NCBI GenBank assembly: GCA_963666345.1
Contig: OY762721.1
Coordinates: 928,001-992,000, forward strand
Reading direction: 5' to 3'
From: Desulfatiglandales bacterium
Lineage (GTDB): Bacteria; Desulfobacterota; DSM-4660; Desulfatiglandales; Desulfatiglandaceae
Length of the DNA: 64,000 nt
This document shows, one piece after another, positions 3,674-20,231 of the stretch. Both the position numbers and the translations under genes were made by a program. The first letter of the stretch is position 1, and each line of letters begins with the position of its first letter. A model generated the notes under the pieces. That model was not told the origin of the DNA. It searched no databases and saw only the letters and a program-made list of their open reading frames with translations.

Positions 3674-3820
3674 TTTTGATGGGCACCGCTACCGGATACC
3701 CCATAAACACCTTTGTTTGCCGGCGCGCAGGCGCATGTTTTTTTTATTGAGGTATGGATTAGACAAGGGCCTGAGGGGGAGATCGGGGCAGGCAAAACAG
3801 GTTTAAGATCACGCCTTTTT

Positions 3821-5539
3821 CTATGTGGCAGGTTTTTCTTCAAACAAAGGTTCTTCAGATATGATACGCTCGTACACAGGTTCGAACCTGTTCCATATTT
3901 CCAGTCCGAGCCGGTTGTGGGTTCCCACGATCTCACGAAGTATCTTCTCATCAATAAGTGGATTTATAAGAACGGCCCTCAAGACGACTATCTCCTGCGG
4001 CCTGTACCTGGTAGACTCCAGGGTAGTCCTTGACACAAATGTGCTGTCATCCCTTCTTAGTTCCTTGTGAAGTTTGATATTAAGCCCGTTCACAAGGTGG
4101 TTCAGTTTTCTGAGTTTGTCCCTTATCTGCTTTTTCTCTTTTGTTGATTTTACCTTTTTCCTGCTTTTTTCCAGAAACAGAAGGTCTCTTCTGGCCTTTT
4201 CCGGTATGAAGCGATAGGTAAGGATAAACAGGTCGGGTTCATTCAAGGTTTCAAAGTTGCCGCATTTGTCAAGTATCCTCTTAAGGATGTTTGTCGACTC
4301 TTTTGCCCCCCTCAAGAGAAGTCCATATCCATCCCGTCCTATTATCTTGAGTGCGGCCCATGGTTTTAAAGCTGAAAAGGCCCGTGACCCTTCAACTGTA
4401 AAGCGGCCTGTATCCACGGAGTTTTTCCGTATGATATATTTGGAAGACTGTTTTATCAGTTTCAGGTCCTTTTCATTTCGAAAGAGCACTACCCCCATAC
4501 TCATGGGACAGTAGAGCAGTTTATGAGCATCGATTGTGGCCGAATCAGCCATCTCGATACCCTTGAAAAGAGGCCTGTACTCATCCACCAGCATGGCTGA
4601 ACCTCCCCAGCAGGCATCCACGTGAAAAGACGCCCCTACCTGTCGGCATACCTCTGAAATAGAAGCCAGATCGTCGATGTTGCCTGTCTCAGTGGTCCCG
4701 GCTATACCGGCGACGGCAATAACCCTCACCCCCTCCCGATCAAGTTCCAGGGCGCGCTTTTCAAGCTTGTGTATGTTAATTCGATTATCTCCGTTAACAG
4801 GTATTGCTATGACATTTTCTTCACCGATTCCGAGCATGCCGATTGATTTCTTTATTGAATAGTGAGCCCGAGCGGACACAAGCACGACACCCCTTGAACA
4901 ACCGTAATAATTGAGAGCGGTAGCCATCCCGGCCATACGAACGCCCGGGAAGGTTCCATCCTGGGGGAAGGCCTTTTCTCTCGCAACCAGCAGGGCGGTA
5001 AGATTCGCCAGTGTGCCGTCGGAAGTCACATTTCCGAGAGCTACCCTGGGATTCTGCATATTTTTTTCATAGAATTTTTCCGTTCTGCTGAATATAAGCC
5101 TGTGAAGCCAGGCTACCAGTTCCCTTTCCACAAAGCTCGACGCCTTGGCGGTTTCGATCTTTACCTGGTTCTGATTGAGGGCGGCGATTATCATTTCAAG
5201 AAGAATCATGAAGTATGGTATCGCACTCGTCATATGGCCTATGTAATAAGGGTTCCCCACCTTAACCGAGTGGCCTACTACCTTGGATTTTATTTCTGAA
5301 AGCACGTCCTTTATGAGATGGGGACCCACCGGAACAGACTTCTGATTAAAGATCTCACTCAGCTCCGGAAGGGTGATACTGCTGTGGATTCCACCTTTTT
5401 CCTGAAAAAAATCATGGATCATCTCAAGGAGTTCATTGCCGAATTCGACAAACTTATCAGCCGAATCAGGCATGATAAAAAGTTTCCTGAGATATTCGAT
5501 ATTGCTTTCGATCCTTTTTTCAGACGCATCCATGCTCAT
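3821..5539 (-). CDS. panP: Group II PLP-dependent decarboxylase, PanP-like (putative aspartate 1-decarboxylase)
   Basis: YIGHMTSAIP, ALNQNQVKIETAKA, GIAGTTETGNID, FHVDACWGG, TIDAHKLLY (PLP lysine), FVSRTTL. Confidence 0.7.
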   Translation of the reverse strand: MSMDASEKRIESNIEYLRKLFIMPDSADKFVEFGNELLEMIHDFFQEKGGIHSSITLPELSEIFNQKSVPVGPHLIKDVLSEIKSKVVGHSVKVGNPYYIGHMTSAIPYFMILLEMIIAALNQNQVKIETAKASSFVERELVAWLHRLIFSRTEKFYEKNMQNPRVALGNVTSDGTLANLTALLVAREKAFPQDGTFPGVRMAGMATALNYYGCSRGVVLVSARAHYSIKKSIGMLGIGEENVIAIPVNGDNRINIHKLEKRALELDREGVRVIAVAGIAGTTETGNIDDLASISEVCRQVGASFHVDACWGGSAMLVDEYRPLFKGIEMADSATIDAHKLLYCPMSMGVVLFRNEKDLKLIKQSSKYIIRKNSVDTGRFTVEGSRAFSALKPWAALKIIGRDGYGLLLRGAKESTNILKRILDKCGNFETLNEPDLFILTYRFIPEKARRDLLFLEKSRKKVKSTKEKKQIRDKLRKLNHLVNGLNIKLHKELRRDDSTFVSRTTLESTRYRPQEIVVLRAVLINPLIDEKILREIVGTHNRLGLEIWNRFEPVYERIISEEPLFEEKPAT

Positions 5540-5650
5540 ACCCGAGGGTTCTTACAGTTTCTTAAAACACCGCCACACCACCCGGAGATCTTAACCGGGA
5601 AGTATCTCCAAAGCAGCCCTGCCTGCTATTTCATAGGATTATATCGAAGT

Positions 5651-6580
5651 TCAAAGGGAGAGCATTCTGTTTACCGCGGCCCTTGCCCTTATACTTATCT
5701 CTTCGGGGACCCTCACCTCAGGTTCCAGATTTTCAAGGGCCATAACGGTTTCTTTAAGACCGGTCTTTTTCATATCAGTGCATATCATCCTGGTGTCGGC
5801 CGGGATGAAAATCTTGCCCGGGTTTTCTTTTGAAAGTGGATGAAGGATGCCTGTCTCAGTGCCTACTATAAACTCCTTTGCCTTGGAATCTCTGGCAAAT
5901 GCAAGCATGCCTGAAGTACTTTTTATCTCATCGGCCATATGGAGCACTTCAGGCGGACACTCCGGGTGAGCCATAAAAACGGCACCGGGATGCTCCTTTT
6001 TTATCCTTTTCACCTGTTCCGGCGACAGGTTGTTATGTATGGGACAAAAACCGCTCCAATAGCTGATATCCCTGTCTGTCTTCATTTTTGTATACTGTGC
6101 CAGATTCTTATCAGGGGTCATGTAGATCCTCTTTCGAGATTCCACGGAGTTTGCAACTGCAACCGCATTGGCGGACGTGCAGCAGATATCGCTCTCCGCT
6201 TTCACAGAAGCGGTTGTATTCACGTAACTTATCACTACGGCATCAGGCATATCACGCCTTTTCTCAATCAACTCTTCGGCCGAGATCATGTTAGCCATGG
6301 GACAACCCGCGTCCGCAACAGGAAGGATGACCTTCTTGTCCGGGCATAGGATCGAGGCGGTTTCGGCCATAAAATGGACCCCGCAAAAAACAATTACCTC
6401 CGCGTCCGTCTGAGAGGCCTTGATCGACAACTCAAGTGAATCACCGCAAAGATCCGCGATGTCCTGAAGTTCCGGTCTCTGGTAATTGTGAACGAGAAGA
6501 ATCGCCTTTCTGGCGGCAAGCCTATCCCTTATCTCTTTTTGAAGCACTCTTATTTCTTTATTCTCACTGAATGTTATCAT
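5651..6580 (-). CDS. nadA: Quinolinate synthase NadA
   Basis: HNYQRPE, GDSLELS, FCGVHFMAETA, AGCPMA, YVNT, CCTSANA, CPIH, HPEC, GTE; likely start ATG 6580. Confidence 0.95.
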   Translation of the reverse strand: MITFSENKEIRVLQKEIRDRLAARKAILLVHNYQRPELQDIADLCGDSLELSIKASQTDAEVIVFCGVHFMAETASILCPDKKVILPVADAGCPMANMISAEELIEKRRDMPDAVVISYVNTTASVKAESDICCTSANAVAVANSVESRKRIYMTPDKNLAQYTKMKTDRDISYWSGFCPIHNNLSPEQVKRIKKEHPGAVFMAHPECPPEVLHMADEIKSTSGMLAFARDSKAKEFIVGTETGILHPLSKENPGKIFIPADTRMICTDMKKTGLKETVMALENLEPEVRVPEEISIRARAAVNRMLSL

Positions 6581-6799
6581 CTTTAGTCCTGAACCCTTCC
6601 GTATATTTTCCGGTGCCCGGCCTTGAGGCATAATTTTTGGATAAAAATTTCATATAGTTGATATTGAGCCTACAAGTCAAGGCATTAGGCCGAAATTAAT
6701 CGGATTTTCCCTATTGTAAGGATGTTTTTCAGTCCTCAAAAACCGCCGCTGAAATAAATATACCTGGCCCCGGGCCTTTCAAGAAGACAGCTTGGGCAG

Positions 6800-6832
6800 A
6801 AAAAAGGAGAGGCAACCGCCTCTCCTTTTTTT
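6800..6832. terminator. Rho-independent terminator ending the tct/OFOR operon
   Basis: A6-GGAGAGGC-AACC-GCCTCTCC-T7. Confidence 0.85.
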
Positions 6833-6868
6833 GCCGGCAAAAGCCGTTTCTAACCAATCCCTTATGGT

Positions 6869-7849
6869 CTATTTCTTTTTGAGCTCCGAAAGTAGTCCTT
6901 TAAGGTATTTTTCCCTTTCCTGGAACATCTTTATTACCTGATCCCTTGTCATGGTCCTCTGCGGACTGCCGGTATTCTTCATCTGTTTTTTGACCTTTTT
7001 GTCCTCGAATATTTTCTGAAAAGCGGCAGCACACTTGTCGATTATATCCTGTGGCACACCCTTTGGAAAGGCAATGCCCCTGAAATTCACGCTTGAATCA
7101 TCAACGTCTATCCCTGCTTCCTTGAAGGTCTCTACATCAGGCAGGAATGAATGCCTTTCGAGATCCGCCACGCCCAGAATCTTTATGCGATCCTTGTTTC
7201 TGAAGGCATCTGAAAGGTTATTGAAACCGGCCTTTACTTTACCGGCGACCACAGACTGCATTGCAGGGGTACCGCCCTTTTCAGGGATATAGGTCATCTT
7301 GATCCCTGCTGCCTTTGAGAACTGCAGAAAGGCGATATGATGGCCCACGTACATTCCGGCCCCGTTTACGGTGACCTTTCCGGGGTTTGCCTTGGCATAC
7401 TTTACAACATCAACGATACTGTTGAAGGGACTGTCCGCAGGCACTATAAAAACCGCCGGATCCGCGCCCCAGTTGGCAACAGGCTCGAAGGTGTTGATAT
7501 CGTACTTGGTCTTGTAAACGATCGACTGGGCGATGAAATGGGGGACATTATATGCAGTCATGGTATAACCGTCTTTGGAACCCTTCTGAACTGTCCAGTT
7601 CCATCCGACCTGCCCGCCTGCCCCCGGCTTGTTGATAATGACGATAGGTTGCCCCAGATAATTTTCATCGGCCGCAACCATGGTTACGATCCTGGCCTGG
7701 AAATCGGTTGCACCTCCCGGTGAATATGCCACCACCATGCTTATGGGCTTATCAGGATACTCGGCCTGTACAGCCGAAGTCAGACCGAAAACAACTAATC
7801 CGATAATCAAAAAGACCTTTAAAAAAAATCCCAATTTGTCAGCTTTCAT
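6869..7849 (-). CDS. tctC: Tripartite tricarboxylate transporter substrate-binding protein (TctC/Bug)
   Basis: Signal peptide, YPDKPISMVVAYSPGGATD, INKPGAGG, YIPEKGG. Confidence 0.9.
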   Translation of the reverse strand: MKADKLGFFLKVFLIIGLVVFGLTSAVQAEYPDKPISMVVAYSPGGATDFQARIVTMVAADENYLGQPIVIINKPGAGGQVGWNWTVQKGSKDGYTMTAYNVPHFIAQSIVYKTKYDINTFEPVANWGADPAVFIVPADSPFNSIVDVVKYAKANPGKVTVNGAGMYVGHHIAFLQFSKAAGIKMTYIPEKGGTPAMQSVVAGKVKAGFNNLSDAFRNKDRIKILGVADLERHSFLPDVETFKEAGIDVDDSSVNFRGIAFPKGVPQDIIDKCAAAFQKIFEDKKVKKQMKNTGSPQRTMTRDQVIKMFQEREKYLKGLLSELKKK

Positions 7850-7931
7850 TTTCCCCTCCTTGATTTAATGGATAATTCCTGAACATTTGCCAATTACATC
7901 AGATTTCGTTTTATTAAGTCCGCCGAGCCCT

Positions 7932-8420
7932 CTAGATAAAAAGCCCCTGCGGTGTCTGAACGAGCAAAATCTTGCTGAAAAGCACATACAATACAGCCAT
8001 GAAAACAAAGGCGATTCCGACTCGAACAGCACCCTTTTTAAGACCCAGATCCTTTCTCCCAAGCGTGAAAGTTACCGCAATCATAAAGAGAAAAGCGGAG
8101 AAATAGAACCCGATTATTTCCATCACCCAGAAATAGACAATCACGAGGATAAAGGTGAATATCACTTTCACCCAGGGATAGGACATCGCGGAAGCCCTGT
8201 TTTTTTTGTCTTCAACGCTTGAGCCCTGAAGGGTCGCCCTGGCGCTTCCGCCCCTCAGAAGAAGTGACTGCATTAACAGGGCCAGGGAAAGCCCCGCCAT
8301 TATAATGATAAGAACCCTGGGAAAAGTCGCGGCCCTGGGATCATCGAAAAACGACAGAGACCAGTAAAGAGCGGCGCTTCCGGCAAGCACAATCAGAGAT
8401 ATAATTATATCGCGTTTCAA
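7932..8420 (-). CDS. tctB: Tripartite tricarboxylate transporter small permease (TctB)
   Basis: Hydrophobic helices, ATFPRVL, C-terminal LLVQTPQG; probable TTG start at 8420 overlapping the tctA stop. Confidence 0.8.
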   Translation of the reverse strand: MKRDIIISLIVLAGSAALYWSLSFFDDPRAATFPRVLIIIMAGLSLALLMQSLLLRGGSARATLQGSSVEDKKNRASAMSYPWVKVIFTFILVIVYFWVMEIIGFYFSAFLFMIAVTFTLGRKDLGLKKGAVRVGIAFVFMAVLYVLFSKILLVQTPQGLFI

Positions 8421-9925
8421 ACCATTTTCTCCTTTGCCTTCCTGTATGACCTTATTTCTCCGTAGATGCTGTATCCTATCGAGGCGGCGCACAGCACGAT
8501 TATAACGACATTCATGGTGCCGGTGAAAAAATATGAAAATGCGCCCACATCGGTATCGGCAATCAGTTTACCCTTAAGGAAATTATCTTCGGCAATCGGA
8601 CCGAGTATGATTCCCAGCACAACCGGCGCCGCTGAAAAACCGAACTTGTTTCCGATATACATCAGTGTCCCCAGGCTGAACATGACTATAACGTCATCAA
8701 AGCTGTTCTGAACACTGTAGGTCCCGTAGACGGCAAGGACCGTAACCGCAGCGATCATATAGAGATTCGGAACGCTCATTACCATGTAGGAGTACCTTGA
8801 AAGAATAATCCCGAAAACGCACATGGCGACCTGAGCCAGTATAAGGCTGCCGATAAAGGTGTAGGTAACATCCGCGTTATTTATAAACAGATCAGGTCCG
8901 GGAAAAAGCCCATGGATGAGAAGCCCTCCCAACAGAACGGCCGCGGTAGGACTTCCAGGTATGCTCAGGGTAAGAAGGGGTATAAGAGAGGGGCCTACCA
9001 TCGCATTATTGGCCGACTCCGCCGCTGCAACCCCTTCCGGGTTTCCTTTGCCGAAAGATTCCGGCTTCTTTGAAAATTTCCTGTTCTGATCATAGGCGAT
9101 CAGACCTGAAACCTGACCGCCCGCGCCCGGGATGATACCGATTATAGAGCCCGTTACAGAACCTATACCGAGGGCTTTTACCATCTTGATATTCTGTATT
9201 AAGGTCTTTAAAAGTATACCCTTTTCAGGCTTGTAATTCGGCCTCTCAATTTGCACGTCCAGTTTTTCCGACAGGGAAAACACCTGGGGAATAGCAAAAA
9301 GCCCTATAAGTGCGGGCACGATCGCCACCCCTCCGGTAAGCACATCATGAAAGACAAAACGGGGGACCCCCAGCATCATGCTGTAGCCTATCGTACTGAT
9401 CAAAAGCCCGAACATTCCCCCGATGAGCCCCTTGGCAATCGATCCTGAAGCAAGCCCCGCCATTACCGTGACACCGAAGATGGCTATCCAGAACATCTCG
9501 GAAGGACCAAACTTGAGTGCTATCTTGGCCAGGGGCGGGGTAAAGAGCACCATCACGAGCATGCCGAAAAGCCCGCCTATCAGGGAACTTATAAAGCATA
9601 TGTAAAGGGCTGTCTGGGACTTGCCCTGCAGGGCCATTGGATGGCCGTCCAGCAGGGTTGCGATATTTGCCGGCGCCCCGGGGATATTTATGAGAATAGC
9701 CGAGATCGCCCCACCCGCCACTGTTGCCGTGTATACGGCACCCAGCAGGATAAGACCCGTCGCCGGCTGCATGTGAAAGGTGAAGGGTACCAGGAGAGCC
9801 ACAGCCATGGTGGGACTCAGGCCGGGCGTGGCTCCGAGGATCAGTCCTCCGATCACACCCATGATAAGGGTTATAAGATTGGTTAAGGTAAGTGCCTCGG
9901 GAAAATACTGTATAAGTTCTGCCAT
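8417..9925 (-). CDS. tctA: Tripartite tricarboxylate transporter large permease (TctA)
   Basis: GATPGLSPTMAVALLVP, AILINIPGAPANIAT.LDGHPMA, GVAAAESANNA, LTLSIPGS. Confidence 0.92.
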   Translation of the reverse strand: MAELIQYFPEALTLTNLITLIMGVIGGLILGATPGLSPTMAVALLVPFTFHMQPATGLILLGAVYTATVAGGAISAILINIPGAPANIATLLDGHPMALQGKSQTALYICFISSLIGGLFGMLVMVLFTPPLAKIALKFGPSEMFWIAIFGVTVMAGLASGSIAKGLIGGMFGLLISTIGYSMMLGVPRFVFHDVLTGGVAIVPALIGLFAIPQVFSLSEKLDVQIERPNYKPEKGILLKTLIQNIKMVKALGIGSVTGSIIGIIPGAGGQVSGLIAYDQNRKFSKKPESFGKGNPEGVAAAESANNAMVGPSLIPLLTLSIPGSPTAAVLLGGLLIHGLFPGPDLFINNADVTYTFIGSLILAQVAMCVFGIILSRYSYMVMSVPNLYMIAAVTVLAVYGTYSVQNSFDDVIVMFSLGTLMYIGNKFGFSAAPVVLGIILGPIAEDNFLKGKLIADTDVGAFSYFFTGTMNVVIIVLCAASIGYSIYGEIRSYRKAKEKMV

Positions 9926-10031
9926 AAAACAACTCTCATCCTGGATACTATGTTATGAGTTAAAATCATGATACAGCAGTCAGTGCGTCAAGGGTTGCGA
10001 CAATAATGCCTTAGGGCCGAATGTCACGGTA

Positions 10032-11573
10032 CTAACTCAACGCTTGTCCATTTTTTTTGACAATCTCCGGTAGCTTGAGGCGTTGAATCTTTCCCGAAGG
10101 GCCTTTGGGAAGTTCATCCATAATAACTATGAGCCTGGGTGTTTTGAAATCGCCCAGGTGCTTCTGACAATGAAGCCTTAGATCTTCCTCCGTAGTGCTT
10201 GAGCAGTCCGGCTTCAAAACAATGCAGGCCATTATCTCCTCGCCGTAGGCATCGTCCGGGATTCCCACGGCAGCCGCATCAAGCACGGAGGGATGCCTGT
10301 ACAGGGCATCATCTATCTCCCTTGGTGCTATGTTTTCACCTCCTTTTATTATGAGTTCCTTTATACGGCCCGTAACAAACACGAAACCGTCTTCATCCAT
10401 GTGACCTATATCTCCCGTGTGAAGCCATCCATCAGGCTCAAGGGCCTCTCTGGTCTTATCGGGAGACTTGTAATACCCCTTCATGACGTTGTCGCCTTTG
10501 ATCATAATCTCGCCGGGCGTATTTCTGGGGACCTCTTTACCTTCCTTGTTTACGATCTTGGCTATATTTCCCACTGCCTGACCGGGGGAGCCATATTTCA
10601 TTTTCGCCGGATCAAGGGGGTTTGAAAACACCGGGGCCGCCGTTTCCGTAAGCCCCATGGTTTCAACAATGGAGACGTTGAATTTTTTTTCGAACTCCTT
10701 ATGAAGCGAAGGTGGCAGCGCCGAGGAGGCGGAGCGCCCAAAACGAAGCTGAGCCAGGTTGTAGCCCTTTCCCTCTACCTCGGTGCCGCTCGTCAGATAC
10801 GAAATAATGGTAGGCACTACACTGAACCAGGTACATCGGTACTCTGAAATAAGTTCCCAGAAATTTGACGCACTGAACCTATGAGGCATAACAACGCTTC
10901 CCCCGCTTACAAGCGGAGTTACGGCCGTTACAACCTCGCCGTTGATATGATAGAGGGGAAGTGAGCAAAGCGCCCTGTCTGCAGGTGTAATCTCGTGGGC
11001 CATTGCCGTGTACTGACCCCCGGCAACCATATTTTTATGAGAAAGGATGACGCCCTTGGGAACACCGGTTGTGCCGGATGTGTATAGCATAAGCGCGTCA
11101 TCGTCTTCGCTAATCTCAGGTAATGTAAATGAAGAGAGGTCATCTCCCTCAGGGAAAATGACCTCTGAATCGTTGTCTATCTGAATCGTTTTTATATCAC
11201 GATTCACTTTCTTCAATGATGCCTCAAGCCTTTCTCTCTGATCTTCGGTGAAAAAGACCAGCCTCGTATCGGAGTGATCCAATACATATTCCAGCTGCGA
11301 AGGCTGGGCCAGAAGGTTTAGAGGCGCAATGACAAAACCTGAGTACATGGCGCCCAAAAATATCTTTGCAGTCTGATATCCGTTGGATAACATGAAAGAT
11401 ACCTTGTCGCCCTTTTCAAGGCCCAGCTTCATGAGCTGTTTACCTAAGGTTGCCGAATCTTTCTTCAACCGCCCGTATGTCAATTCCAGGCCAGGTTCAG
11501 GGGCGATCATAAAAATTTTATCAGGTTCCGCTTCAGCTCTATGGTCGATATAGTATCTTATGGTACGCATCAC
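10032..11573 (-). CDS. AMP-forming acyl-CoA ligase, most reminiscent of sulfoacetate-CoA ligase SauT
   Basis: LYTSGTTGVPKGV, LPLYHING, RSASSALPP, ETMGLTETAAPVFSNPLDP, GGENIAPREID, PKGPSGKIQR. The SauT resemblance is from recall of the family and was not searched. Confidence 0.8.
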   Translation of the reverse strand: MMRTIRYYIDHRAEAEPDKIFMIAPEPGLELTYGRLKKDSATLGKQLMKLGLEKGDKVSFMLSNGYQTAKIFLGAMYSGFVIAPLNLLAQPSQLEYVLDHSDTRLVFFTEDQRERLEASLKKVNRDIKTIQIDNDSEVIFPEGDDLSSFTLPEISEDDDALMLYTSGTTGVPKGVILSHKNMVAGGQYTAMAHEITPADRALCSLPLYHINGEVVTAVTPLVSGGSVVMPHRFSASNFWELISEYRCTWFSVVPTIISYLTSGTEVEGKGYNLAQLRFGRSASSALPPSLHKEFEKKFNVSIVETMGLTETAAPVFSNPLDPAKMKYGSPGQAVGNIAKIVNKEGKEVPRNTPGEIMIKGDNVMKGYYKSPDKTREALEPDGWLHTGDIGHMDEDGFVFVTGRIKELIIKGGENIAPREIDDALYRHPSVLDAAAVGIPDDAYGEEIMACIVLKPDCSSTTEEDLRLHCQKHLGDFKTPRLIVIMDELPKGPSGKIQRLKLPEIVKKNGQALS

Positions 11574-11610
11574 GGTCGCTCCCCCTCAATTATTTAAAGT
11601 TAGCAACTAA

Positions 11611-12147
11611 TTACGTGGCCTTATAACTAAACCCCACCTCGAATGCCTCTCTGTTTCTGTTGTGAAATTTGGGAATGATGGCAAGGGTGCTCTCAAGAAC
11701 CTTGTCCTTTTCAAGCCCTTCCACCAGGTTCGCCATAAAGCCTAAAACTATGGTATTGGCAAAAAGTGCATTGTCGAATTTTTCCATAGACAACTCCTTT
11801 GCCGGAAATGAAATCTGTTTGCATTTCAGGCCTTCATCCACCTCATCCACAAAGGCGGGGTCATATATGATTACCCCTTCGTCAGGAACCGTATCCTTGA
11901 AACGTTTGTAGGCCGCGCTTGAAAGGGCGATAAAAAAGTCAGGAGCTTCACACATGGGACTGTCTATGATCTTTTCGGAAAGCACCACCTGACTCCTGAC
12001 ATAGCCTCCGCGCATTTCCGTTCCATGACTCTTGAGCATGGCCACATGGAGGCCCTGCTTCACTCCTGTCTCACCTATGATCTGGCCGAGCCTCACCACA
12101 CCCTGGCCGCCAAACCCGCTAGCAACGATTTCGACTCGATCTTTCAT
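11611..12147 (-). CDS. 2-oxoacid:ferredoxin oxidoreductase gamma subunit
   Basis: SGFGGQGVV, HGTEMRGGYVRSQV, NREAFEVG. Confidence 0.9.
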   Translation of the reverse strand: MKDRVEIVASGFGGQGVVRLGQIIGETGVKQGLHVAMLKSHGTEMRGGYVRSQVVLSEKIIDSPMCEAPDFFIALSSAAYKRFKDTVPDEGVIIYDPAFVDEVDEGLKCKQISFPAKELSMEKFDNALFANTIVLGFMANLVEGLEKDKVLESTLAIIPKFHNRNREAFEVGFSYKAT

Positions 12148-12992
12148 AATCTTCCCGTCCTCCTAATTTTCTCGACTGTGTCATGGACAAATTCATGGAA
12201 TTCAGGCCTTGAGTTGCTCTTATCATGCCAGATACCGCAGGCCCAGAAGGTATTCTCCTTTTCCTGGCCGAGAGGTGCGGCATGATCCTTGATCCAACGA
12301 TAGATATTCACCTGATTCCTGGAACCCAACTCCCTTGAGGCAAAGTTTGTAGGACAGGGATACGGCATATGCACAAGGGAAAACCCCTTGTTCTCGATTG
12401 CCTTTTTGACCGTCTCAACGGCCCATGCGCCGTCCATAGCCACATGACGTGCGAGAAAGGTTGCACCCGCCCCCTTGAGTATCTCCAGCACATCCATCCC
12501 CTCACTCATCAGATTGTGCTCAAACATCCCATAGGGGCTGCTGTCGGTATGGCTCCCCTGAGGCGTGGTCCATCCGTACTGGCCGCCGGTGGACTGATAG
12601 CCCAGATTATCATTGACTATAACGGTCATGTCGGCGTTCGATCTGGCAGCGTGAATCAGATGCATCAGCCCTATTCCAAAGGCATCTCCATCCCCGACCG
12701 TAAGTATTATCTTCTTTTCAGGCGGCAGCGCTATCCGCAACCCCCTTGCTATTGCGTAGGCCCTGCCGTGAGTTCCGGCAAAACCGTCTCCCAGCCATGT
12801 AGCAAAAGTTTGGCGCCCTGCGCATCCTATTGAGGTACCCCAAATCACGTCAGCCACTTCCAGCCCCAGCTCATTTACGGCGGTTACGACTATCTTGTGG
12901 TTCATACCTAATCCACAACCGGAACAGGCGGTACTGGGGATCTTTCTGGTACGCAGATATTTTGATATTAACTCTGATGATCTATATTCCAT
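12144..12992 (-). CDS. 2-oxoacid:ferredoxin oxidoreductase beta subunit (TPP-binding)
   Basis: CSGCG, SIGCAGR, GTHGRA, GDGDAFGIG, TGGQ, CPT; coupled to the alpha and gamma genes. Confidence 0.9.
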   Translation of the reverse strand: MEYRSSELISKYLRTRKIPSTACSGCGLGMNHKIVVTAVNELGLEVADVIWGTSIGCAGRQTFATWLGDGFAGTHGRAYAIARGLRIALPPEKKIILTVGDGDAFGIGLMHLIHAARSNADMTVIVNDNLGYQSTGGQYGWTTPQGSHTDSSPYGMFEHNLMSEGMDVLEILKGAGATFLARHVAMDGAWAVETVKKAIENKGFSLVHMPYPCPTNFASRELGSRNQVNIYRWIKDHAAPLGQEKENTFWACGIWHDKSNSRPEFHEFVHDTVEKIRRTGRL

Positions 12993-14167
12993 TACCATGC
13001 CTCCAATACCCAGCCCTTGCGTGTAAGGGGTTCGTTTTTAAGTATCTTTTCATATGTCTCAATGAGATCAGGGGTAGTCGGTAAATCCCCGCAGGTACCA
13101 AGGAATCTTATTTCCGAATCCTTGGGAGCCGCTCTCTGGACCTCACGCACCAGCTCACCGTCCCAGTTGAGCTCCACGGACAGATATTTGGCCTTCCTGG
13201 AAAAAAGCTCGTCCGGGAACGGCCAGATATTGATAAGACGGAGCGAACCCACTTTGAGTCCTTGCGACCTGGCCTTTTCCACGGAGGTATTTACAACCCT
13301 TGAAGGACTGCCGTAAGAAACAACAACCAGATCGGGATCATCATCCATAAATTTTTTCTCATAGTGGTGGTTGAATAGGTCCCTGTTGTTCCTGACCTTG
13401 TAGATGAGCCTGTAGGCATGCTTGTGGTGTGCATCCACCTCCTCGATATCATATCCTTCTACCGTCGGAGTCCAGTCCGAGCAGATCGCTCCCGTGTTGT
13501 GCCCCAACACGACAGGCGGGATATCCAGTTCATCGGTAAAGGGATAGAATTCCGGCCCCTGACAGACCTTTCTGGGCCAGATCCTGAATCCCATCTCGTT
13601 CATTTCATCTTCTGTCTCAGGCACACTTATATCCTCGAAACCGTCTGTTATAAGCTGGTCGGCAAGCACCATCACCGGCATACGGAATCTCTCTGAGAGA
13701 TAAAATGCCTCAACCACCATCTTCATGCATTCCTGCGCGCTGTTCGGTGCAAGACATATGGTCTCGAAATTCCCGCCCTGCGTGGGATACCTCATAAGAT
13801 AAAATTCACCCTGGCCGGGTGCTCCGGTAATACCGCTCACAGGACCGACACGCCCCGAATTAAGCACGACCAGAGGTGTCTCACATCCTAAGGCCCAGCC
13901 GAGCGGGTCCGCGTAAAGGATATAGCCTGGTCCTGAAGTTGCGGTCATGGCCTTGTAACCTCCCAGTGAGGCCCCCACGCACATATGGCAGGCCGCGCAC
14001 TCATCCTCGGCCTGCAGATATACGCCTCCCACCTGGGGCAACCTTAGACTCATAGCCTCGGCAAGCTCCGTTGCAGGCGTAATAGGATAACCTGAAAAGA
14101 ACCTGCACCCTGCTATGATGGCCCCCTCGGTTATTGCAAAATTTCCTGTTTCAAGATACCTTTTCAT
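12992..14167 (-). CDS. 2-oxoacid:ferredoxin oxidoreductase alpha subunit
   Basis: GNFAITEGAIIAGCRFFSGYPITPATE, QAEDE, MTATSGPG. Confidence 0.92.
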   Translation of the reverse strand: MKRYLETGNFAITEGAIIAGCRFFSGYPITPATELAEAMSLRLPQVGGVYLQAEDECAACHMCVGASLGGYKAMTATSGPGYILYADPLGWALGCETPLVVLNSGRVGPVSGITGAPGQGEFYLMRYPTQGGNFETICLAPNSAQECMKMVVEAFYLSERFRMPVMVLADQLITDGFEDISVPETEDEMNEMGFRIWPRKVCQGPEFYPFTDELDIPPVVLGHNTGAICSDWTPTVEGYDIEEVDAHHKHAYRLIYKVRNNRDLFNHHYEKKFMDDDPDLVVVSYGSPSRVVNTSVEKARSQGLKVGSLRLINIWPFPDELFSRKAKYLSVELNWDGELVREVQRAAPKDSEIRFLGTCGDLPTTPDLIETYEKILKNEPLTRKGWVLEAW

Positions 14168-14186
14168 ATCAGAAACCTCCTCTGTT

Positions 14187-15836
14187 TCATGCGGTTACAT
14201 CGATAACGTCAATGGCGAAATCAGGGCAGGAGAAATAACATTTAAAGCACCCGACACACCAGTCTGAGGACTTGACCTCGTTCGGCCTGTAGCCTTTTGC
14301 GTTAAAAAAGTCGGCAGGGCCGAAGGTCTCAACTCCGCAGACCTCGGAACAGTAACCGCATTCCTTGCAGTATTCGGTGTTGAGCACAACCTGGAATTTT
14401 CTGGCATCACAATTGAGGCATCTGCCCGCCTCTGCTTCTATCTGTTCATCTGTAAAACCACATTCGACCTGATCAAAACCGGAAGTACGCTCCCATGGTC
14501 TGAGAAGCTTCATCTCGTTTCTGGGCCTTATATCCAGGACGAATTCCTCGAGCATCACCTTGTCTTCCGGGGCGGCAAGGATTTCGGCAATTTCACCATC
14601 ACCGCCAAGGTAGCTGTCGATGGCGGAGGCCGCCTTTCTGCCGTGAGCTATGGCGTTTATTATGGAATCCGGCCCTGTAACGACATCGCCGCCGGCAAAC
14701 ACGCCCTTTTCACCTGTAGAGAGATCCTGCTCATTTGCCTTGACCCTGTTTCCGCTTGTATCGACCTGTTTTTCCCCTTTCAGGTATGTCAGGTCGGAAA
14801 CCTGACCGACAGCCAGTATGACATTCCCGGCATCCACCTTTTCAGAGATCTCTTCATCGTAGGTCGGATTAAAGTTACATGCATTGTCGAATACGGATGT
14901 GCATTTTATCAGACCTAAGCCTGTGACTTCGTCATCACCCAGTATCTTTTTGGGGGCCCATGAATTGTTGATACTAACCCCTTCTTCTTCTGCACGCGCT
15001 ATTTCCCACTCATGAGCGGGCATCTCTTCCCGTGACTCCAGACAGAACAGGTACACGTTTTTCGCACCAAGCCTCTTTGCCGTCAGAGCCACGTCGATGG
15101 CCACGTTACCGCCGCCTACTACAACCACATCCCCCTCAAAGGAAATATCTTTTTCAAGCCCTATGTCAGAGAGGAAATCCCATCCCCATAGGACCCCTTT
15201 TTTGTCGGAGCCCTCAAGAGGTATTTTTATGCTGCCGCTGGCACCGCTCGCCAGGAATGTGGCGTCATATTCCTTTTTGAGCTGCTCCATACCGACATCC
15301 TTACCCACTGTAGTGTTTCCCTTGAAAGCCACTCCGAGCTCGAATATGTCGTTGATATCCTTGTCCAGTCTTTCCTCAGGCAGCCTGTAATTGGGGATAC
15401 CGTAACGCATGGCCCCACCCGGTTTGGGAAACGAATCAAATATCGTAACTTCATGCCCCTTGGTCGCAAGGTAATATGCGGATGTAAGACCGGCCGGGCC
15501 GGACCCGACAACAGCAACTTTTTTCCCCGTTTTTTCAGCAATCTTTTTATTTTTCTTCCAGCCGTCCCCTCCTTTGTCAACAGCCGCCCTCTTTATCGCG
15601 CGAATAGCTATCGAGTCTCCGAACTGTTTGTAAGCACACACCTCTTCGCAGGGAGCAAAACAGGCATCGGCACAAACAGTTGGGAGAGGGAGCTTTTCGC
15701 GCAGCACAGCCACTGCGTCATCATACCGTTTGTCTTTAACAGCACGGATGTACCTTGGCACGTCCACGCCTGCGGGACATGCTTCTGTACAACGTGGAAC
15801 GATAAATTTTTTTCTTTCAACATGTACTACGCCCAT
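14187..15836 (-). CDS. GltD/NfnB-like FAD- and NAD(P)-binding Fe-S oxidoreductase fused to a C-terminal 2x[4Fe-4S] ferredoxin (OFOR delta-like)
   Basis: CTEACPAG, VCADACFAPCE, VVGSGPAG, YGIPNYRLP, VVGGGNVAIDVA, FAGGD, EAGRCLNCD, then CKECGYCSEVC and CVGCFKCYFSCPDFAI. Confidence 0.88.
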   Translation of the reverse strand: MGVVHVERKKFIVPRCTEACPAGVDVPRYIRAVKDKRYDDAVAVLREKLPLPTVCADACFAPCEEVCAYKQFGDSIAIRAIKRAAVDKGGDGWKKNKKIAEKTGKKVAVVGSGPAGLTSAYYLATKGHEVTIFDSFPKPGGAMRYGIPNYRLPEERLDKDINDIFELGVAFKGNTTVGKDVGMEQLKKEYDATFLASGASGSIKIPLEGSDKKGVLWGWDFLSDIGLEKDISFEGDVVVVGGGNVAIDVALTAKRLGAKNVYLFCLESREEMPAHEWEIARAEEEGVSINNSWAPKKILGDDEVTGLGLIKCTSVFDNACNFNPTYDEEISEKVDAGNVILAVGQVSDLTYLKGEKQVDTSGNRVKANEQDLSTGEKGVFAGGDVVTGPDSIINAIAHGRKAASAIDSYLGGDGEIAEILAAPEDKVMLEEFVLDIRPRNEMKLLRPWERTSGFDQVECGFTDEQIEAEAGRCLNCDARKFQVVLNTEYCKECGYCSEVCGVETFGPADFFNAKGYRPNEVKSSDWCVGCFKCYFSCPDFAIDVIDVTA

Positions 15837-15921
15837 AATTTAATAATCCTCCTCATATTATTAGACAAACAGAACTCCCACACCTTACTGTCTACAAATT
15901 TCGAGATCCCGATTAAAAAAG

Positions 15922-15937
15922 AGCAAGAAAGATGCCA
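15922..15937 (-). promoter_or_regulatory. Sigma-54 (-24/-12) promoter of the OFOR/ligase/Tct operon
   Basis: Minus strand TGGCATCTTTCTTGCT, exact GG-N10-GC spacing, about 85 bp upstream of the ATG at 15836. Confidence 0.85.
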
Positions 15938-16086
15938 CAAAATTAAACAGCAATAAATAAAGCCTGCGGAAGCCACTATATGCTTAATATTACTATAAAA
16001 AGAAAATTGAAAAATTATTAGCCGGAAACATCTACGATATTTGTTTATCAAGTTTGGCCCATGACGGGTGTGCTGCCTGCCTTACA

Positions 16087-16104
16087 TGTCCGATATTGCG
16101 GACA
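16087..16104. promoter_or_regulatory. Candidate upstream activator sequence for the sigma-54 activator
   Basis: Perfect inverted repeat TGTCCG-N6-CGGACA about 150 bp upstream of the -24 box; near-copy TTTCCG-N6-CGGACA at 16432-16449. Confidence 0.6.
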
Positions 16105-16534
16105 CCTTTTTATCCATTGCAATAATTTATTTCAGGAAGAGAAGGGGTAAATAGAGATATGACCGATATAAACCAAGGGAAAGAGAAAAGGCAGATTCAG
16201 AGGCTTCCTGTAAAAATGTTCGGAACCGGGTCAGAAAACCATGTTGTTTATTGTAAAGTATCTTGACACAAAGTCAAATTCTCCGACATGAAAATGGGTC
16301 CGCATTGGAGCGCTTTACTACTTCCTCATAAAGGAACCAAGCATATAGGATCATCTTTTTTATAATAAAACCAACGTCTTTTCAAAGTTGGTCTCTATTC
16401 ATTACAACAAATTTATTATCCTCAAAGACCGTTTCCGGAATTTCGGACACATTTTAAACCTTTCTTTGGTCACTCAATCCGATTTTTTCCAGATTAGAAG
16501 GAACTTTTCTAAGAATCCACATTTGGCCGATCCA

Positions 16535-17998
16535 TCACAGATTATGTTTTTTACATTTTTCGTAAAGAGTTGAACGGGACAGTCCAAGGACTCTGGCGGT
16601 CCTGGCCATATTGCCCCCGGAAAATTTTATCGCCTGGGAAAGCAGTTCCTTCTCATATCTGTCCATTTCCCTTGAAAAAGGCTTTATTTTTTCAGACCTG
16701 GGTCTTTCAAATGTTCCCTTAAAACAGATTAGTTCCGGGGGAAGGTGCTCCGGCCCGATAACCTTTCCCTCTGCCAGACTCACCGCCCTTAAGACAACGT
16801 TTTTAAGCTCTCTTATATTACCGGGCCATGGGTATGCCTGCATGATCTTAAGGGCGTCCTCACTGAACCTGATACCAGGTCTTTCAATGGAGGAGAGGAA
16901 ATGCTCCACCAATTCAGGGATATCATCAGGTCTCTCGGAAAGAGAGGGTATCACGACACTCATGGTGTTCAACCGGTAGAACAGATCGTCCCTGAATTCT
17001 TTTCTGCTTATCATCTCCCTTAAATCCCTGTTGGTCGCAGCCACCAGCCTGAAATCGACCTTAACGGTCTTAAGGCCTCCCAGCTTTTCGATCTTTTTTG
17101 TTTCAAGGACCCTGAGCAATTTGGCCTGGGCGCTCAAAGGCAGGTCCCCTATCTCATCAAGGAACAGGGTTCCCCCGTGGGAAAGCTCTATCTTTCCCGC
17201 CTTGCCCTTCGGTCTTGCACCGGTAAAGGCACCGGTTTCATAGCCGAACAGTTCCGATTCAAGGAGTTCTCTTGGAATGGCGGCGCAGTTTACACAGACA
17301 AAGCTTCCGTTTCTTCTCCAACTTGCCTTATGTATGGCATGAGCAAAAAGCTCCTTTCCGCTGCCGGTTGCCCCTAGAACAAGGACTGAGGCATCTGTCT
17401 TGGCATACTTGGCAGCCATCTTTTTCGCCTCAACAAGCAGCCTGGTATTGCCTAAAATTGATTCGAAGCTGTACGTTGCCGAAAGAAGGCTGTCAAGGCC
17501 TCGTTTGTAATATTTCAACTCTCTTTCCAGCAGATTAAGCCTCTCCATCAGCTCGTTTATTTCGGTATGGTTCTTGAAGATGGTCTGAAGTACGACCCCC
17601 ACTGTCTCGTCCCCGCTCTTTATCGGTATTCGGTTGACAAGCAAGGCCACATTTGATCTCAGACTGCAGCGCTGCCCGATTTCCATTTTACCGCTTTCAA
17701 GAACCGACGGTATCCTGGAGGAGGGAAAATATTTCTTTATGTGTCTTCCGACCGCCTCGTTTTTATCCGTCCCTAGCAACTCTCCATAAAACCTGTTCAT
17801 GTAGAGGATCCTGGAATCGCTGTCGCATAGGATTATCCCTGAATAGACATTTTCCATTATCAACTCAAGGACTGAAGCGAAATCCTTCATACTTCCGTTA
17901 AGGCCGCCAGCCTTAAGCTCTATGGCAGGCTGAAACTGGAGACTGGATCGGCAGAAATTGATATCTGAAGATGTCCTGGAATTATCGACTGATGACAT
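16535..17998 (-). CDS. Sigma-54-dependent transcriptional activator (PAS, AAA+, Fis HTH)
   Basis: [54 protein letters not shown]. Confidence 0.95.
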
Positions 17999-18619
17999 AA
18001 GCTTGATATTCCCTCCTATTTTGAATCACCAGGGTAGGGGTTCAAAATATCTGAAACAGGGGCGGAAAATTCTCAATCGTAAAAGGGCAAGGATATCCTT
18101 CTTACCTATTTAAACATTAGTAAAATGCAATCACAGGTGTCAATTTAAAACAGGCGGGGCTTTATGGCCCGGGTATTCACCAACAGCCCTGTTTATCATC
18201 GTACAGGCGCAGGTACAGGGGCTTTTTCTTTGCTCCGCTACGCTACGCCCAGTCCCACTAATGCTCAGCGGGTTCCCGGTTTCTGCAGACATTGTCTCAC
18301 AAAAAAAAGCCGCTGGAAATTCCAGGGGACGGAGCGTACAGGCTGCAACGGCCGGGTGAATGCCTCATTGAGTTCACCCGCGGGCAAAGGCGAACAAATC
18401 CTTGAATGGGTTATTTTAAATCAACGACAGCAAAATTTACTTGACATAAGAATACTTATAGATTTATTTATCAGATATCAATTACCAAAAAAATTACAAT
18501 TCGTAAATCAACCAGCTGATATTTCTGGTTTTTTTATTGCCCCAGCTTATATCATTGGAGATATAAGAACACCATAGCTGGGTCCGATCCACCACGAATA
18601 TTATAATAGGAGGGATAAC

Positions 18620-19519
18620 ATGGTAGAAGCAAAAGCGATTGAAACGGGCAGCAATTGGGATATGGACTTTGATCTGTGCCTGGATGACGTGGCCCTTGCA
18701 AAAAAGGTCCTTGAAAGCGCCCAACAAAACGGAGGAAAAATCAGTGATGCAGGGATAGTCTTTGCATTGAGAAACATCCTCAAGATGAAATATTATCCTG
18801 TCGCGGTAAAGTATTTTTTTGACGAAAAAGAGCTTGAAGACTTTAAGAACAATACCGAATACAAGGTGTCCCTGCACCCTGTCACCTTCTGCGCCTATGT
18901 TGCGGCAAGCAGGCAGAGGGGGGACATCCTCCTTGGCACAGCCGATAAGCTAGGTTGCTCCAATGCCAAATTCGTCATGAAATGGAAGGAAATTGATGAC
19001 GGCGAGATAAAGAGCCATCTCAAATACACAAAGGACTGGGATCAGGCGGAAAGATTCGTAAAGACCAAAAAGAGACTTCCCAAGGAACCGCTGGCCTTTG
19101 CCACCGCACCCCTTCACAAGGCACCCTTCAAACCGGATCTGATCCACGGCATGTGCGATACCCTCCAGTCATATCATCTTGCAAACGACTGGGATGCCGC
19201 CTTCGACAACCATCCCTTTGAGATGACTATGACCATGAATTCCTCCATATGCCACGGCTGTGTCCAGTGTTTTGTTACGGAGAAATTCAATGTAACCCAG
19301 ATGTGCAGCAGCAGCTATACGGCGGGAAAAACCGAACAGGGCGAGATCAACTGGATTATGCCCTATGATCAGATGGAACCCACAGTCCACTGGATGCTCG
19401 AGCGCACCGTCCGTGACGGAGGGGTGTCCTTCCCCAGGACAGGTGAGACATATCCCGGCTTTGACATCTGCAAGCTGTGCCCCTTCCTGACATTTAAAAA
19501 ACCCAAAAAGGAAAAATAA
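18620..19519 (+). CDS. DUF169-like Cys-rich protein
   Basis: LKMKYYPVAVKY, TFCAYV, LGCSNA, APLHKAPFKPDLI, ICHGCVQC; RBS AGGAGG. Confidence 0.65.
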   Translation: MVEAKAIETGSNWDMDFDLCLDDVALAKKVLESAQQNGGKISDAGIVFALRNILKMKYYPVAVKYFFDEKELEDFKNNTEYKVSLHPVTFCAYVAASRQRGDILLGTADKLGCSNAKFVMKWKEIDDGEIKSHLKYTKDWDQAERFVKTKKRLPKEPLAFATAPLHKAPFKPDLIHGMCDTLQSYHLANDWDAAFDNHPFEMTMTMNSSICHGCVQCFVTEKFNVTQMCSSSYTAGKTEQGEINWIMPYDQMEPTVHWMLERTVRDGGVSFPRTGETYPGFDICKLCPFLTFKKPKKEK

Positions 19520-19675
19520 GCGGAGCGAAATCTCCCCAAACTCATGAAGTCCCCAGGCTCAATATCTCCTGTTGACCTCCTCCCCTGGGGGCTTGAATTG
19601 AACATCCCCGGTATTTTTGCTTAACCGATTTTCTTCTCTTCTGTTCCATGAAAATTCTCACAGGAGACAAATCAG

Positions 19676-20155
19676 ATGAAAGCAACGATAAGGCTGATAG
19701 TAAACGGAGACACCTACTTTGTCGCGGTTGACCCCTCCCGTACGCTCAATGAGGTGCTCAGGGAGGAATTGAACCTTACCGGTACCAAGCTTGGTTGCGG
19801 TTCAGGAGACTGCGGTGCATGCTCGGTCATTGCAGATGGGAAAATAATCAGTTCCTGCCTTACCCTTGCAATAGAGATGGATGGAGTGGAAATAACCACT
19901 GTGGAAGGAATCGCGTCATCAGGTGAGCACCTGCATCCTATCCAAAGGGCCTTTATTGAAAAAGGCGCCATTCAATGCGGGTTCTGCACGCCCGGCATGG
20001 AGCTGTCCGCATTATATCTTTTAAACAGCAACCCTGAACCATCGGAGGATGAAATAAGGGCCGGACTTTCCGGAAATCTTTGCAGATGCACCGGTTATTC
20101 CAAAATCGTGGAGGCCATTTCAGCCGCTGCCGACAAGATGAAAAACTCCGGCTAG
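19676..20155 (+). CDS. Xanthine dehydrogenase family 2x[2Fe-2S] small subunit
   Basis: GTKLGCGSGDCGACSV, QCGFCTPG, GNLCRCTGY. Confidence 0.95.
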   Translation: MKATIRLIVNGDTYFVAVDPSRTLNEVLREELNLTGTKLGCGSGDCGACSVIADGKIISSCLTLAIEMDGVEITTVEGIASSGEHLHPIQRAFIEKGAIQCGFCTPGMELSALYLLNSNPEPSEDEIRAGLSGNLCRCTGYSKIVEAISAAADKMKNSG

Positions 20156-20231
20156 ATCTCAGCCCCCTGTCTTTCGGCAAAGAGGTGTTTATCTAATTAC
20201 CATACAATATCTTTGACAAGGATTTCCAGTA

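Follow-up and report, generated by a model that had tools for sequence, protein, structure and literature searches.

A nine-gene unit at positions 6869–17998 of the 64,000-nucleotide (nt) stretch analysed here (the window; Desulfatiglandales bacterium, contig OY762721.1, positions 928,001 to 992,000) appears to be a sigma-54-controlled operon for the use of sulfoacetate, in which a 2-oxoacid:ferredoxin oxidoreductase (OFOR) takes the place held elsewhere by SauS with Xsc nearby. Judged by sequence, uptake and activation are those of the known Sau system, and the step after sulfoacetyl-CoA is not. We tentatively propose that the OFOR and its flavoprotein–ferredoxin partner (GltDFd) form an NAD(P)H-driven sulfoacetyl-CoA reductive desulfonase, which would be a new kind of desulfonating enzyme. 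A first-pass annotation of the same DNA had instead suggested ferredoxin-driven reductive carboxylation of sulfoacetyl-CoA to 3-sulfopyruvate. Pfam and NCBIfam scans of 6800–17998 found all nine genes on the minus strand and in the families it had named, bearing out its single co-oriented unit from sigma-54 promoter to terminator:

6869–7849, minus: TctC-family periplasmic binding protein (SauZ-like), candidate sulfoacetate receptor (PF03401, 3.9e-43)
7932–8492, minus: TctB small membrane subunit (PF07331)
8417–9925, minus: TctA large membrane subunit (PF01970, 2e-131)
10032–11573, minus: AMP-forming CoA ligase, SauT clade (PF00501, 7e-81; PF13193, 5.6e-19)
11611–12147, minus: OFOR gamma subunit, domain III (PF01558)
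12144–12998, minus: OFOR beta subunit, with thiamine diphosphate (TPP) and proximal [4Fe-4S] sites (PF02775)
12992–14167, minus: OFOR alpha subunit (PF01855, PF17147)
14187–15836, minus: NfnB/GltD-like FAD/NAD(P)H flavoprotein fused to an OFOR-delta-like 2×[4Fe-4S] ferredoxin, 549 residues (PF14691, PF07992, PF13187, NF042987)
16535–17998, minus: PAS–AAA+ sigma-54 activator–Fis HTH regulator (PF00989, PF00158, PF02954)

The GTG open reading frame (ORF) listed for TctB overlaps TctA by 76 nt and its Pfam match begins at residue 30; the real start probably lies near 8420.

Sulfoacetate-type ligase and transporter

The ligase has the adenylate-forming fold and C-terminal domain of the ANL superfamily (PF00501, PF13193), and among solved structures its closest relatives are oxalate-CoA and malonyl-CoA ligases, which places it with ligases for short anionic acids. 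Every NCBIfam model stays below its curated cut-off for this protein, as it does for the OFOR alpha, beta and gamma subunits. The motif strings by which the first-pass annotation had likened the ligase to Cupriavidus SauT are present in the window protein. Scanning genomes with the ligase, one genome per species, gave 55 loci. In the two most distant of these, from Cocleimonas flava (52% identity) and a Pelagibacteraceae genome (47%), the homologue directly follows a gene passing the NCBIfam SauS model (731 and 653 bits, cut-off 600) and lies near an Xsc gene over the NCBIfam cut-off. The Cocleimonas locus additionally holds Pta, and its TctA and TctC are 60% and 59% identical to those of the window.

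A metagenome scan with an alignment of the ligases gave 80 further loci, and 120 full-length ligases were sorted by their neighbouring genes. OFOR genes accompany 54 (60–82% identical to the window ligase) and SauS or Xsc genes 26 (47–64%), the two being mutually exclusive, with no ligase locus holding both. A further 18 have neither within at least 2.5 kb upstream (six, at most 35% identical, are distant outgroups), and 22 have flanks too short to classify. In a maximum-likelihood tree of 121 rows (quick search, SH-aLRT support), all SauS/Xsc- and OFOR-linked ligases fall into one clade of 111 rows (support 100, branch length 1.0), outside which rows are 27–37% identical. SauS-linked rows are paraphyletic; the 55 OFOR-linked rows lie within one subclade of 81 rows (support 99) that has zero SauS-linked rows and a SauS-linked group (support 96) as its sister. 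The tree thus upholds the likeness to SauT and sets 10032–11573 apart from other acyl-CoA ligases, SauT being represented here by the neighbours of SauS/Xsc genes rather than by the Cupriavidus protein itself. The gene probably encodes a sulfoacetate-CoA ligase.

The transporter is of the matching type. TctC, TctB and TctA genes stand together as in the SauXYZ-type tripartite tricarboxylate transporter (TTT; PF03401, PF07331, PF01970), and the window proteins are 57–64% (TctC) and 60–64% (TctA) identical to those of SauS/Xsc clusters; other TctC paralogues of the window's own genome reach at most 33%. The window TctC shares a clade (support 99) with 25 other OFOR-linked and 9 SauS-linked TctC proteins, the comparison being with TctC of SauS-linked clusters rather than with Bilophila SauZ itself, and a second TctC type is likewise common to OFOR-linked and SauS-linked clusters. 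According to the available text of Liu et al. 2023 (PMC10413351), SauZ, a TctC-family protein, binds sulfoacetate with a Kd of 0.13 µM, and SauS accompanies 'nearly all' SauZ homologues. The window TctC is a probable sulfoacetate receptor, and with ligase and TctC clades both shared with SauS/Xsc clusters, sulfoacetate is the best substrate candidate, as first suggested.

The OFOR, its proposed electron donor and its predicted feeder routes

OFOR genes stand beside the ligase in 31 of the 55 genome loci, and all nine genes recur together in 13 of those, which puts the unit far beyond chance and answers the earlier call to check the synteny of OFOR, ligase and TctABC. Across loci, identity to the window is 79–92% for OFOR alpha and beta, 57–77% for the flavoprotein fusion and 52–66% for the activator; the host metagenome-assembled genomes (MAGs) are labelled Desulfobacterales, Desulfatiglandales, Desulfarculia, Desulfomonilaceae, Desulfocapsaceae and others. 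The distribution is patchy. An even, quality-rated sample of the phylum (301 genomes) holds the ligase at 60% identity or more in five genomes, including the window's own (one closed contig of 4.16 Mb, 96.7% complete), and OFOR beta at 63% or more in seven, with a clear gap to the nearest relatives outside the clade at 38–41%. SauS is absent from all 54 OFOR-linked loci, exceeds its cut-off in 0 of 28 further cluster genomes and has a best match of 32 bits (cut-off 600) in the window's own genome. The part of the earlier proposal that put the OFOR module in the place of SauS therefore stands; carboxylation as what the module does fares less well, as set out below.

By alignment to PDB chains, OFOR beta retains the GDGD/TPP-binding GDG...N motif and the four proximal [4Fe-4S] cysteines, and OFOR alpha the YPITP threonine and an arginine equivalent to StOFOR1 Arg344 (StOFOR1 residue roles are from the available text of PMC5020499). 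Together with the gamma subunit these features place the enzyme in the OFOR superfamily. None of the named subfamilies (KOR/OGOR, VOR, POR, IOR, OOR, Pad) reaches its cut-off, with alpha at 321 bits against 411 and beta at 147 against 364 for NCBIfam equivalog models. The best solved alpha/beta relatives, OFORs of the OorDABC/KorAB type (PDB 8ys5, 1yd7, 6n2n), share the TPP motif, cysteines, YPITP and arginine. They differ in carrying YGLT/YGMT in beta where the window has YQST, and GPSTGLPT in alpha where it has GPVSGITG. The clade is marked by DNLGYQSTGGQ and SIGCAGRQT in beta and RVGPVSGITGAPGQGEFY in alpha, invariant in 12 aligned sequences and absent from five OFOR paralogues of the window's own genome. 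Both beta motifs also occur in three further loci (L207, L193 and L208); of two alpha motifs sought there, L193 and L208 have one apiece and the truncated alpha of L207 has neither. DNLGYQSTGGQ stands where other OFORs carry Y-G/A-M/L-T, and its serine replaces the residue equivalent to StOFOR1 Leu123b/DaPFOR Asn996, described as a specificity determinant in the available part of PMC5020499. Another OFOR alpha/beta/gamma set, 28–34% identical to that of the operon, lies at the window end (62631–64000 and beyond; 990901–993169 of the genome).

The flavoprotein has the N-terminal 2×[4Fe-4S] domain and the FAD and NAD(P) Rossmann domains (PF14691, PF07992) of the NfnB/GltD type. Its PDB relatives are NfnA/NfnB-type proteins and GltD (5.5e-101 to 4e-48); PRK12771 stays below its cut-off (472 against 516 bits), and residues 478–544 of the fusion match NF042987 (OGOR_delta). 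The same genome encodes a second such fusion (608 residues, GltD-like plus PorD-like) at 2193900–2198400 of its contig (7909–12390 of locus L184), between PorC and PorA/PorB genes and beside citrate synthase, aconitase and isocitrate dehydrogenase genes. This set is plausibly an NAD(P)-linked oxidoreductase that serves central metabolism and acts on pyruvate or a 2-oxoacid. Coupling OFORs to flavoproteins of the pyridine-nucleotide type thus seems habitual in the lineage.

Beyond the window type, with its SauT-clade ligase and TctABC, three further gene contexts feed the same OFOR clade. In two genomes (L199 and L200) a paralogous flavoprotein–OFOR set, 44/72/68/55% identical to that of the window, is followed in the same direction by a SauS-like acylating aldehyde dehydrogenase (best NCBIfam match SauS, 520–525 bits, below the cut-off of 600), a class-III aminotransferase and a GntR regulator; in L200, genes for a TauA/B/C-like transporter, with taurine TauA/B/C as best NCBIfam matches, come after GntR. 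We read this type as predicted conversion of taurine through sulfoacetaldehyde to sulfoacetyl-CoA. Two metagenome loci (L115 and L116) carry flavoprotein–OFOR, a SauT-clade ligase (74% identity), a dicluster ferredoxin, an aldehyde:ferredoxin oxidoreductase (AOR), an aminotransferase of the same type (79–80% identical to that of L199/L200) and GntR, which may be read as taurine to sulfoacetaldehyde, sulfoacetate and sulfoacetyl-CoA. In one genome (L207) the OFOR genes are followed by SucC- and SucD-like genes, whose products lie just over the succinate-CoA ligase cut-offs, and a TctC-like gene; less securely, this SucCD-like activation would mirror the alternation of SauT and SauCD. Sulfoacetyl-CoA, predicted to be made upstream of the OFOR, is common to all four contexts and is therefore very likely the OFOR substrate, and these other feeder routes support the earlier assignment of direction, with the OFOR consuming an acyl-CoA.

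We considered and rejected the OFOR as a mere substitute for SauS that makes sulfoacetaldehyde. The L199/L200 type has a SauS-like dehydrogenase as well as the OFOR, so the latter is not simply another aldehyde-making sulfoacetyl-CoA reductase, and the window's own genome also lacks an Xsc or glycyl-radical enzyme to cleave sulfoacetaldehyde. The second-type SauS-like protein had no match in five genomes searched, a search that included no positive control.

Three observations concern these relatives. A histidinol-dehydrogenase-family gene (3138–4454) lies beside the taurine-type cluster of L199, with a 79% identical copy near 17646 in L016; the 2,3-dihydroxypropane-1-sulfonate (DHPS) dehydrogenase HpsN presumably belongs to that family. 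In L014 a TauE/SafE-family permease gene (6928–7737) lies just upstream of the ligase–TctABC genes. An AOR gene lies downstream in L014 (15739–17625) and L044 (near 18287), its product 67–69% identical to the AOR of L115.

The candidate reaction and its rivals

In the reaction we favour, sulfoacetate would be imported by the SauXYZ-type TTT transporter and activated by the SauT-clade ligase to sulfoacetyl-CoA, whose acyl group the OFOR would take onto TPP. Two electrons from NAD(P)H, passed through FAD and five [4Fe-4S] clusters, would yield 1-hydroxy-2-sulfoethylidene-TPP, the intermediate of Xsc; this would expel sulfite to leave acetyl-TPP, which CoA would release as acetyl-CoA. The net reaction would convert sulfoacetyl-CoA and NAD(P)H to acetyl-CoA, sulfite and NAD(P)+, with no uptake of CO2 by the reduced TPP adduct. 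One enzyme would do the work of SauS, Xsc and Pta, and the sulfite would pass to DsrAB as electron acceptor. In the taurine-type clusters, NAD(P)H from the SauS-like step, or reduced ferredoxin from AOR, would be consumed again, making the route redox-neutral like that of Xsc.

Xsc expels sulfite from the aldehyde-level adduct of sulfoacetyl-TPP, and every OFOR hands acetyl-TPP on to CoA. The couples concerned lie at about −500 mV (acyl-CoA + CO2/2-oxoacid), −410 mV (acyl-CoA/aldehyde) and −320 mV (NAD(P)H). By these values, bringing the TPP-bound acyl group to the aldehyde level would be mildly uphill, as for SauS, and reaching the 2-oxoacid would cost about 20 kJ/mol more. The available text of PMC10413351 describes Xsc as TPP-centred.

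Among the seven quality-rated OFOR genomes, no known desulfonating family tracks the OFOR, yet each genome has at least one of the broad families; the genomes are mostly MAGs. The window's own genome encodes DsrA over cut-off; a search for Xsc, ComE and ComDE over cut-off, for a TIGR01275 (CuyA-type) member and for a glycyl-radical domain found none there. Among the 28 further cluster genomes, Xsc occurs in 5, a glycyl-radical domain in 16 and the GD_AH family in 24. Glycyl-radical domains were also found in genomes G331 and G332, and an isethionate lyase may be among the enzymes of all these genomes; many glycyl-radical enzymes in Desulfobacterota act on other substrates. The seven quality-rated OFOR genomes have a glycyl-radical domain in two, GD_AH in four and TIGR01275 over cut-off in two; Xsc was found in none, in a search whose controls were also unmatched, the same model having found Xsc in other searches. 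One genome with the ligase and TctABC, in which a search found no OFOR beta, has Xsc; three with the OFOR lack it. SuyB presumably belongs to GD_AH (PF04295) and CuyA to TIGR01275, both broad families.

Several points weigh against reductive desulfonation. The proposed reaction draws on chemistry and gene context, and NAD(P)H is put forward as the donor by family membership only. The pair of residues with which solved OFORs hold the carboxylate of a 2-oxoacid is conserved here. This agrees no less well with a genuine 2-oxoacid product than with desulfonation, in which these residues might instead grip the departing sulfonate. In the phylum sample, two genomes with the OFOR are without a SauT-clade ligase at E ≤ 1e-100; one of them, G260, has no recognised feeder, on a contig of just 3.6 kb. 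Conversely, 12 ligases of the OFOR subclade have no adjacent OFOR, although OFOR beta lies elsewhere in three of the four such genomes checked. All seven quality-rated genomes hold at least one member of a broad family that includes a known desulfonating enzyme, so the operon may not be self-sufficient. The window's own genome has SuyAB-like genes, including three split GD_AH/SuyB-like genes.

These last genes bear on the rival closest to the first-pass annotation, in which the OFOR would reductively carboxylate sulfoacetyl-CoA to 3-sulfopyruvate, to be converted through sulfolactate and SuyAB, or cysteate and CuyA, to pyruvate and sulfite. Carboxylation is the canonical reverse reaction of the family, for which the conserved YPITP threonine and carboxylate-binding arginine also speak, and one of the three split SuyB-like genes stands with a HIBADH-like gene, a LarA-type racemase gene and a TTT transporter. 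This locus (L069, at 789600–801700 of the genome) holds genes for an AOR-like protein, a HIBADH-like dehydrogenase, the split SuyB-like dehydratase, GntR, a sulfatase-family protein, a LarA-type 'malate racemase' and a TTT transporter. It is a probable sulfolactate/C3-sulfonate locus, whose LarA-type enzyme might racemise sulfolactate; its SuyB-like gene is 71% identical to one beside Xsc in the Pelagibacteraceae locus and is therefore a credible SuyB. Such a gene lies about 5 kb from the OFOR in one locus (L008), which is the only one of 54 OFOR loci with a SuyB-like gene nearby, and the probable orthologue (at least 77% identity) is present in only 10 of 31 cluster genomes. The window's own genome lacks a gene for TIGR01275, which we take to be the CuyA type, or for ComDE. 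The enzymes proposed to act downstream do not accompany the cluster consistently. With an NAD(P)H-type donor, carboxylation would be uphill by about 35 kJ/mol at the potentials given above (about −500 mV against −320 mV). In taurine-type clusters a C2 sulfonate would be turned into a C3 sulfonate merely to be desulfonated. With a donor of the NAD(P)H type and no known sulfo-lyase consistently present, the earlier ferredoxin-driven version is unsupported, and we consider carboxylation unlikely. In another genome (G330; L201, 10707–14169), OFOR gamma is directly followed by genes for biotin carboxyl carrier protein, biotin carboxylase and a carboxyltransferase like pyruvate carboxylase B or oxaloacetate decarboxylase alpha, and then by BKACE-family and LarA-like genes, with a SauT-clade ligase about 20 kb away on the same contig. 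This biotin set could bear on carboxylation, sulfopyruvate being a look-alike of oxaloacetate.

Less probable still is that the unit handles a carboxylate look-alike, malonate (or beta-alanine in the taurine-like clusters), with the OFOR acting on malonyl-CoA or a short acyl-CoA. Oxalate- and malonyl-CoA ligases are the best solved relatives of the ligase, specificity can change at 60–64% identity, and the ligase, the TauABC-like proteins and the second-type SauS-like dehydrogenase all fall short of every NCBIfam cut-off. Against this, the ligase clade lies within a set of ligases with neighbours that pass the specific SauS and Xsc models, each of two TctC types is shared by SauS-linked and OFOR-linked clusters, and SauS and taurine TauA/B/C are the best matches of the second-type dehydrogenase (520–525 bits, cut-off 600) and the transporter. 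Malonyl-CoA, moreover, would need only decarboxylation and no five-cluster reductase.

An oxidative OFOR that turns sulfopyruvate or another 2-oxoacid into acyl-CoA and NAD(P)H, with the ligase reversed for energy and sulfoacetate as end product, is very improbable. NAD(P)-linked OFORs are known to oxidise 2-oxoacids (the NADH-dependent phenylglyoxylate dehydrogenase family), and sulfoacetate is an excreted end product of the sulfo-transketolase pathway (available text of PMC13436972), but the binding protein is of a type shown to bind sulfoacetate for import (available text of PMC10413351), the importer, aminotransferase and acylating dehydrogenase of the taurine-type clusters all lead toward sulfoacetyl-CoA, and the unit encodes no source of a 2-oxoacid. 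The probability that remains belongs to chemistry beyond the readings named here.

Control, surroundings and place among known routes

The operon is framed by the following elements:

15922–15937, minus: sigma-54 −24/−12 promoter, TGGCATCTTTCTTGCT, fitting the consensus, 101 nt before the first start codon
16087–16104, strand unassigned: perfect palindrome TGTCCG-N6-CGGACA, candidate activator binding site
16433–16448, strand unassigned: second, imperfect palindrome of the same type (offset −612), candidate site
About 6800–6832, minus: intrinsic terminator at the operon end, GC-rich hairpin and U run

Of 33 related loci whose upstream DNA is long enough, 12 have a TGG[CT]-N8-TGC element at 80–156 nt before the flavoprotein gene, and 13 have GTCCG-N(4-10)-CGGA[CA] palindromes farther upstream; the PAS sigma-54 activator is retained upstream of the operon at 52–66% identity. 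Both window palindromes fall in about 600 nt of low-GC non-coding DNA between promoter and activator gene (15937–16535), which also contains a sigma-70-like site at 16277–16250. The terminator hairpin folds at −28.5 kcal/mol (z −5.0 against shuffles); an automated terminator scan missed it, and its counts, like those of the sigma-70 scan, were near shuffle expectation.

Contigs from four marine-sediment metatranscriptome runs of one study, 95–99% like the window, cover 6911–15230 and span every operon gene junction:

6942–9942: TctC–TctB–TctA junctions bridged
9540–10241: TctA/ligase junction bridged
11542–11838: ligase/gamma junction bridged
11807–12193: gamma/beta junction bridged
12820–13574: beta/alpha junction bridged
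13974–14522: alpha/flavoprotein junction bridged

The operon genes are thus represented in RNA libraries as a block, although such libraries may hold DNA and their contigs cannot prove a single transcript. The flanks 5600–6900 and 15600–18600 are nearly bare of RNA contigs and give no evidence for transcript ends. At 10051, near the 3' end of the ligase gene, one base is missing in the contigs of all four runs; the window ligase has a longer C-terminal tail than its relatives. The difference reflects strain variation or an assembly error and affects the last residues alone.

Neighbouring genes were rejected as operon parts. Divergent from the unit, at 18164–23410 on the plus strand, are a family-less 137-residue ORF, a DUF169 gene and the 2Fe-2S, FAD and Mo subunits (S/M/L) of a xanthine-dehydrogenase-family enzyme. 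These are followed on the opposite strand by a family-less 197-residue ORF, a thiolase-like gene and an HTH–cupin regulator. None of the divergent genes, the thiolase-like ones included, recurs in the 55 genome loci; of the PanP-like and NadA genes downstream, the PanP-like one recurs in a single locus.

To our knowledge, all described sulfoacetate routes pass through sulfoacetaldehyde; obligatory there, it is probably not an intermediate of the window operon. With the SauT–SauS–Xsc pathway of Cupriavidus necator and the SauXYZ–SauCD–SauS–TauF–IseG pathway of Bilophila wadsworthia (available text of PMC10413351) the operon shares TTT uptake with a SauZ-like protein. It also shares activation to sulfoacetyl-CoA by a SauT-clade ligase (or, in one relative, SucCD-like proteins as in Bilophila) and the likely use of sulfite as electron acceptor in a Dsr-containing anaerobe. 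Unlike these pathways, the window has no SauS, Xsc or IseG and encodes a TPP/Fe-S OFOR with an NAD(P)H-type flavoprotein instead. Xsc (TIGR03457) is also a TPP enzyme, and in the reaction we favour both would form the same hydroxy-sulfoethylidene intermediate. Xsc, however, belongs to an acetolactate-synthase-like family, works without a redox partner and converts the aldehyde to acetyl phosphate, whereas the window enzyme, of the OFOR family, would convert the thioester to acetyl-CoA at the cost of two electrons.

The Azoarcus 2-oxoglutarate:NADP+ oxidoreductase is an NAD(P)-linked OFOR. Phenylglyoxylate dehydrogenase PadEFGHI (NF045762/4/6) has the same three-subunit OFOR core, a ferredoxin-type component and a flavin/NAD(P) component. 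It oxidises 2-oxoacids, whereas context indicates that the window OFOR consumes an acyl-CoA; the Pad models score far below cut-off here, and the flavoprotein and delta ferredoxin of the window are one polypeptide. Among the open full texts searched (subscription papers lie outside this scope), none pairs sulfoacetyl-CoA with ferredoxin, and the titles and abstract openings of papers pairing sulfopyruvate with ferredoxin oxidoreductase name no such enzyme. Papers of 2025–2026 (PMC13436972, PMC12625764) describe, in their available parts, SauS-based routes only.

The turnover of sulfolipids and animal sulfonates commonly ends in sulfoacetate and taurine (available text of PMC13436972 and PMC10413351), and the way in which anaerobic sulfate reducers strip the sulfur from sulfonates sets how much of this pool becomes sulfide. 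With 54 OFOR-linked loci, the gene set is spread widely among Desulfobacterota MAGs and sediment metagenomes, and it is present in sediment RNA libraries; two 2023 runs under one organism label hold the whole stretch, so a culture may exist. Either outcome corrects the annotations 'long-chain-fatty-acid-CoA ligase' and '2-oxoglutarate oxidoreductase' and makes the motifs markers for sulfonate respiration. Carboxylation, if true, would be a new CO2-fixing entry into C3-sulfonate metabolism. Cleavage of the C–S bond by an OFOR, if true, would be new enzyme chemistry for a very old family and a further C–S cleavage mechanism beside Xsc, SuyAB/CuyA, glycyl-radical lyases and oxygenases, and would give marine-sediment sulfate reducers that lack Xsc a hub for the use of both sulfoacetate and taurine.

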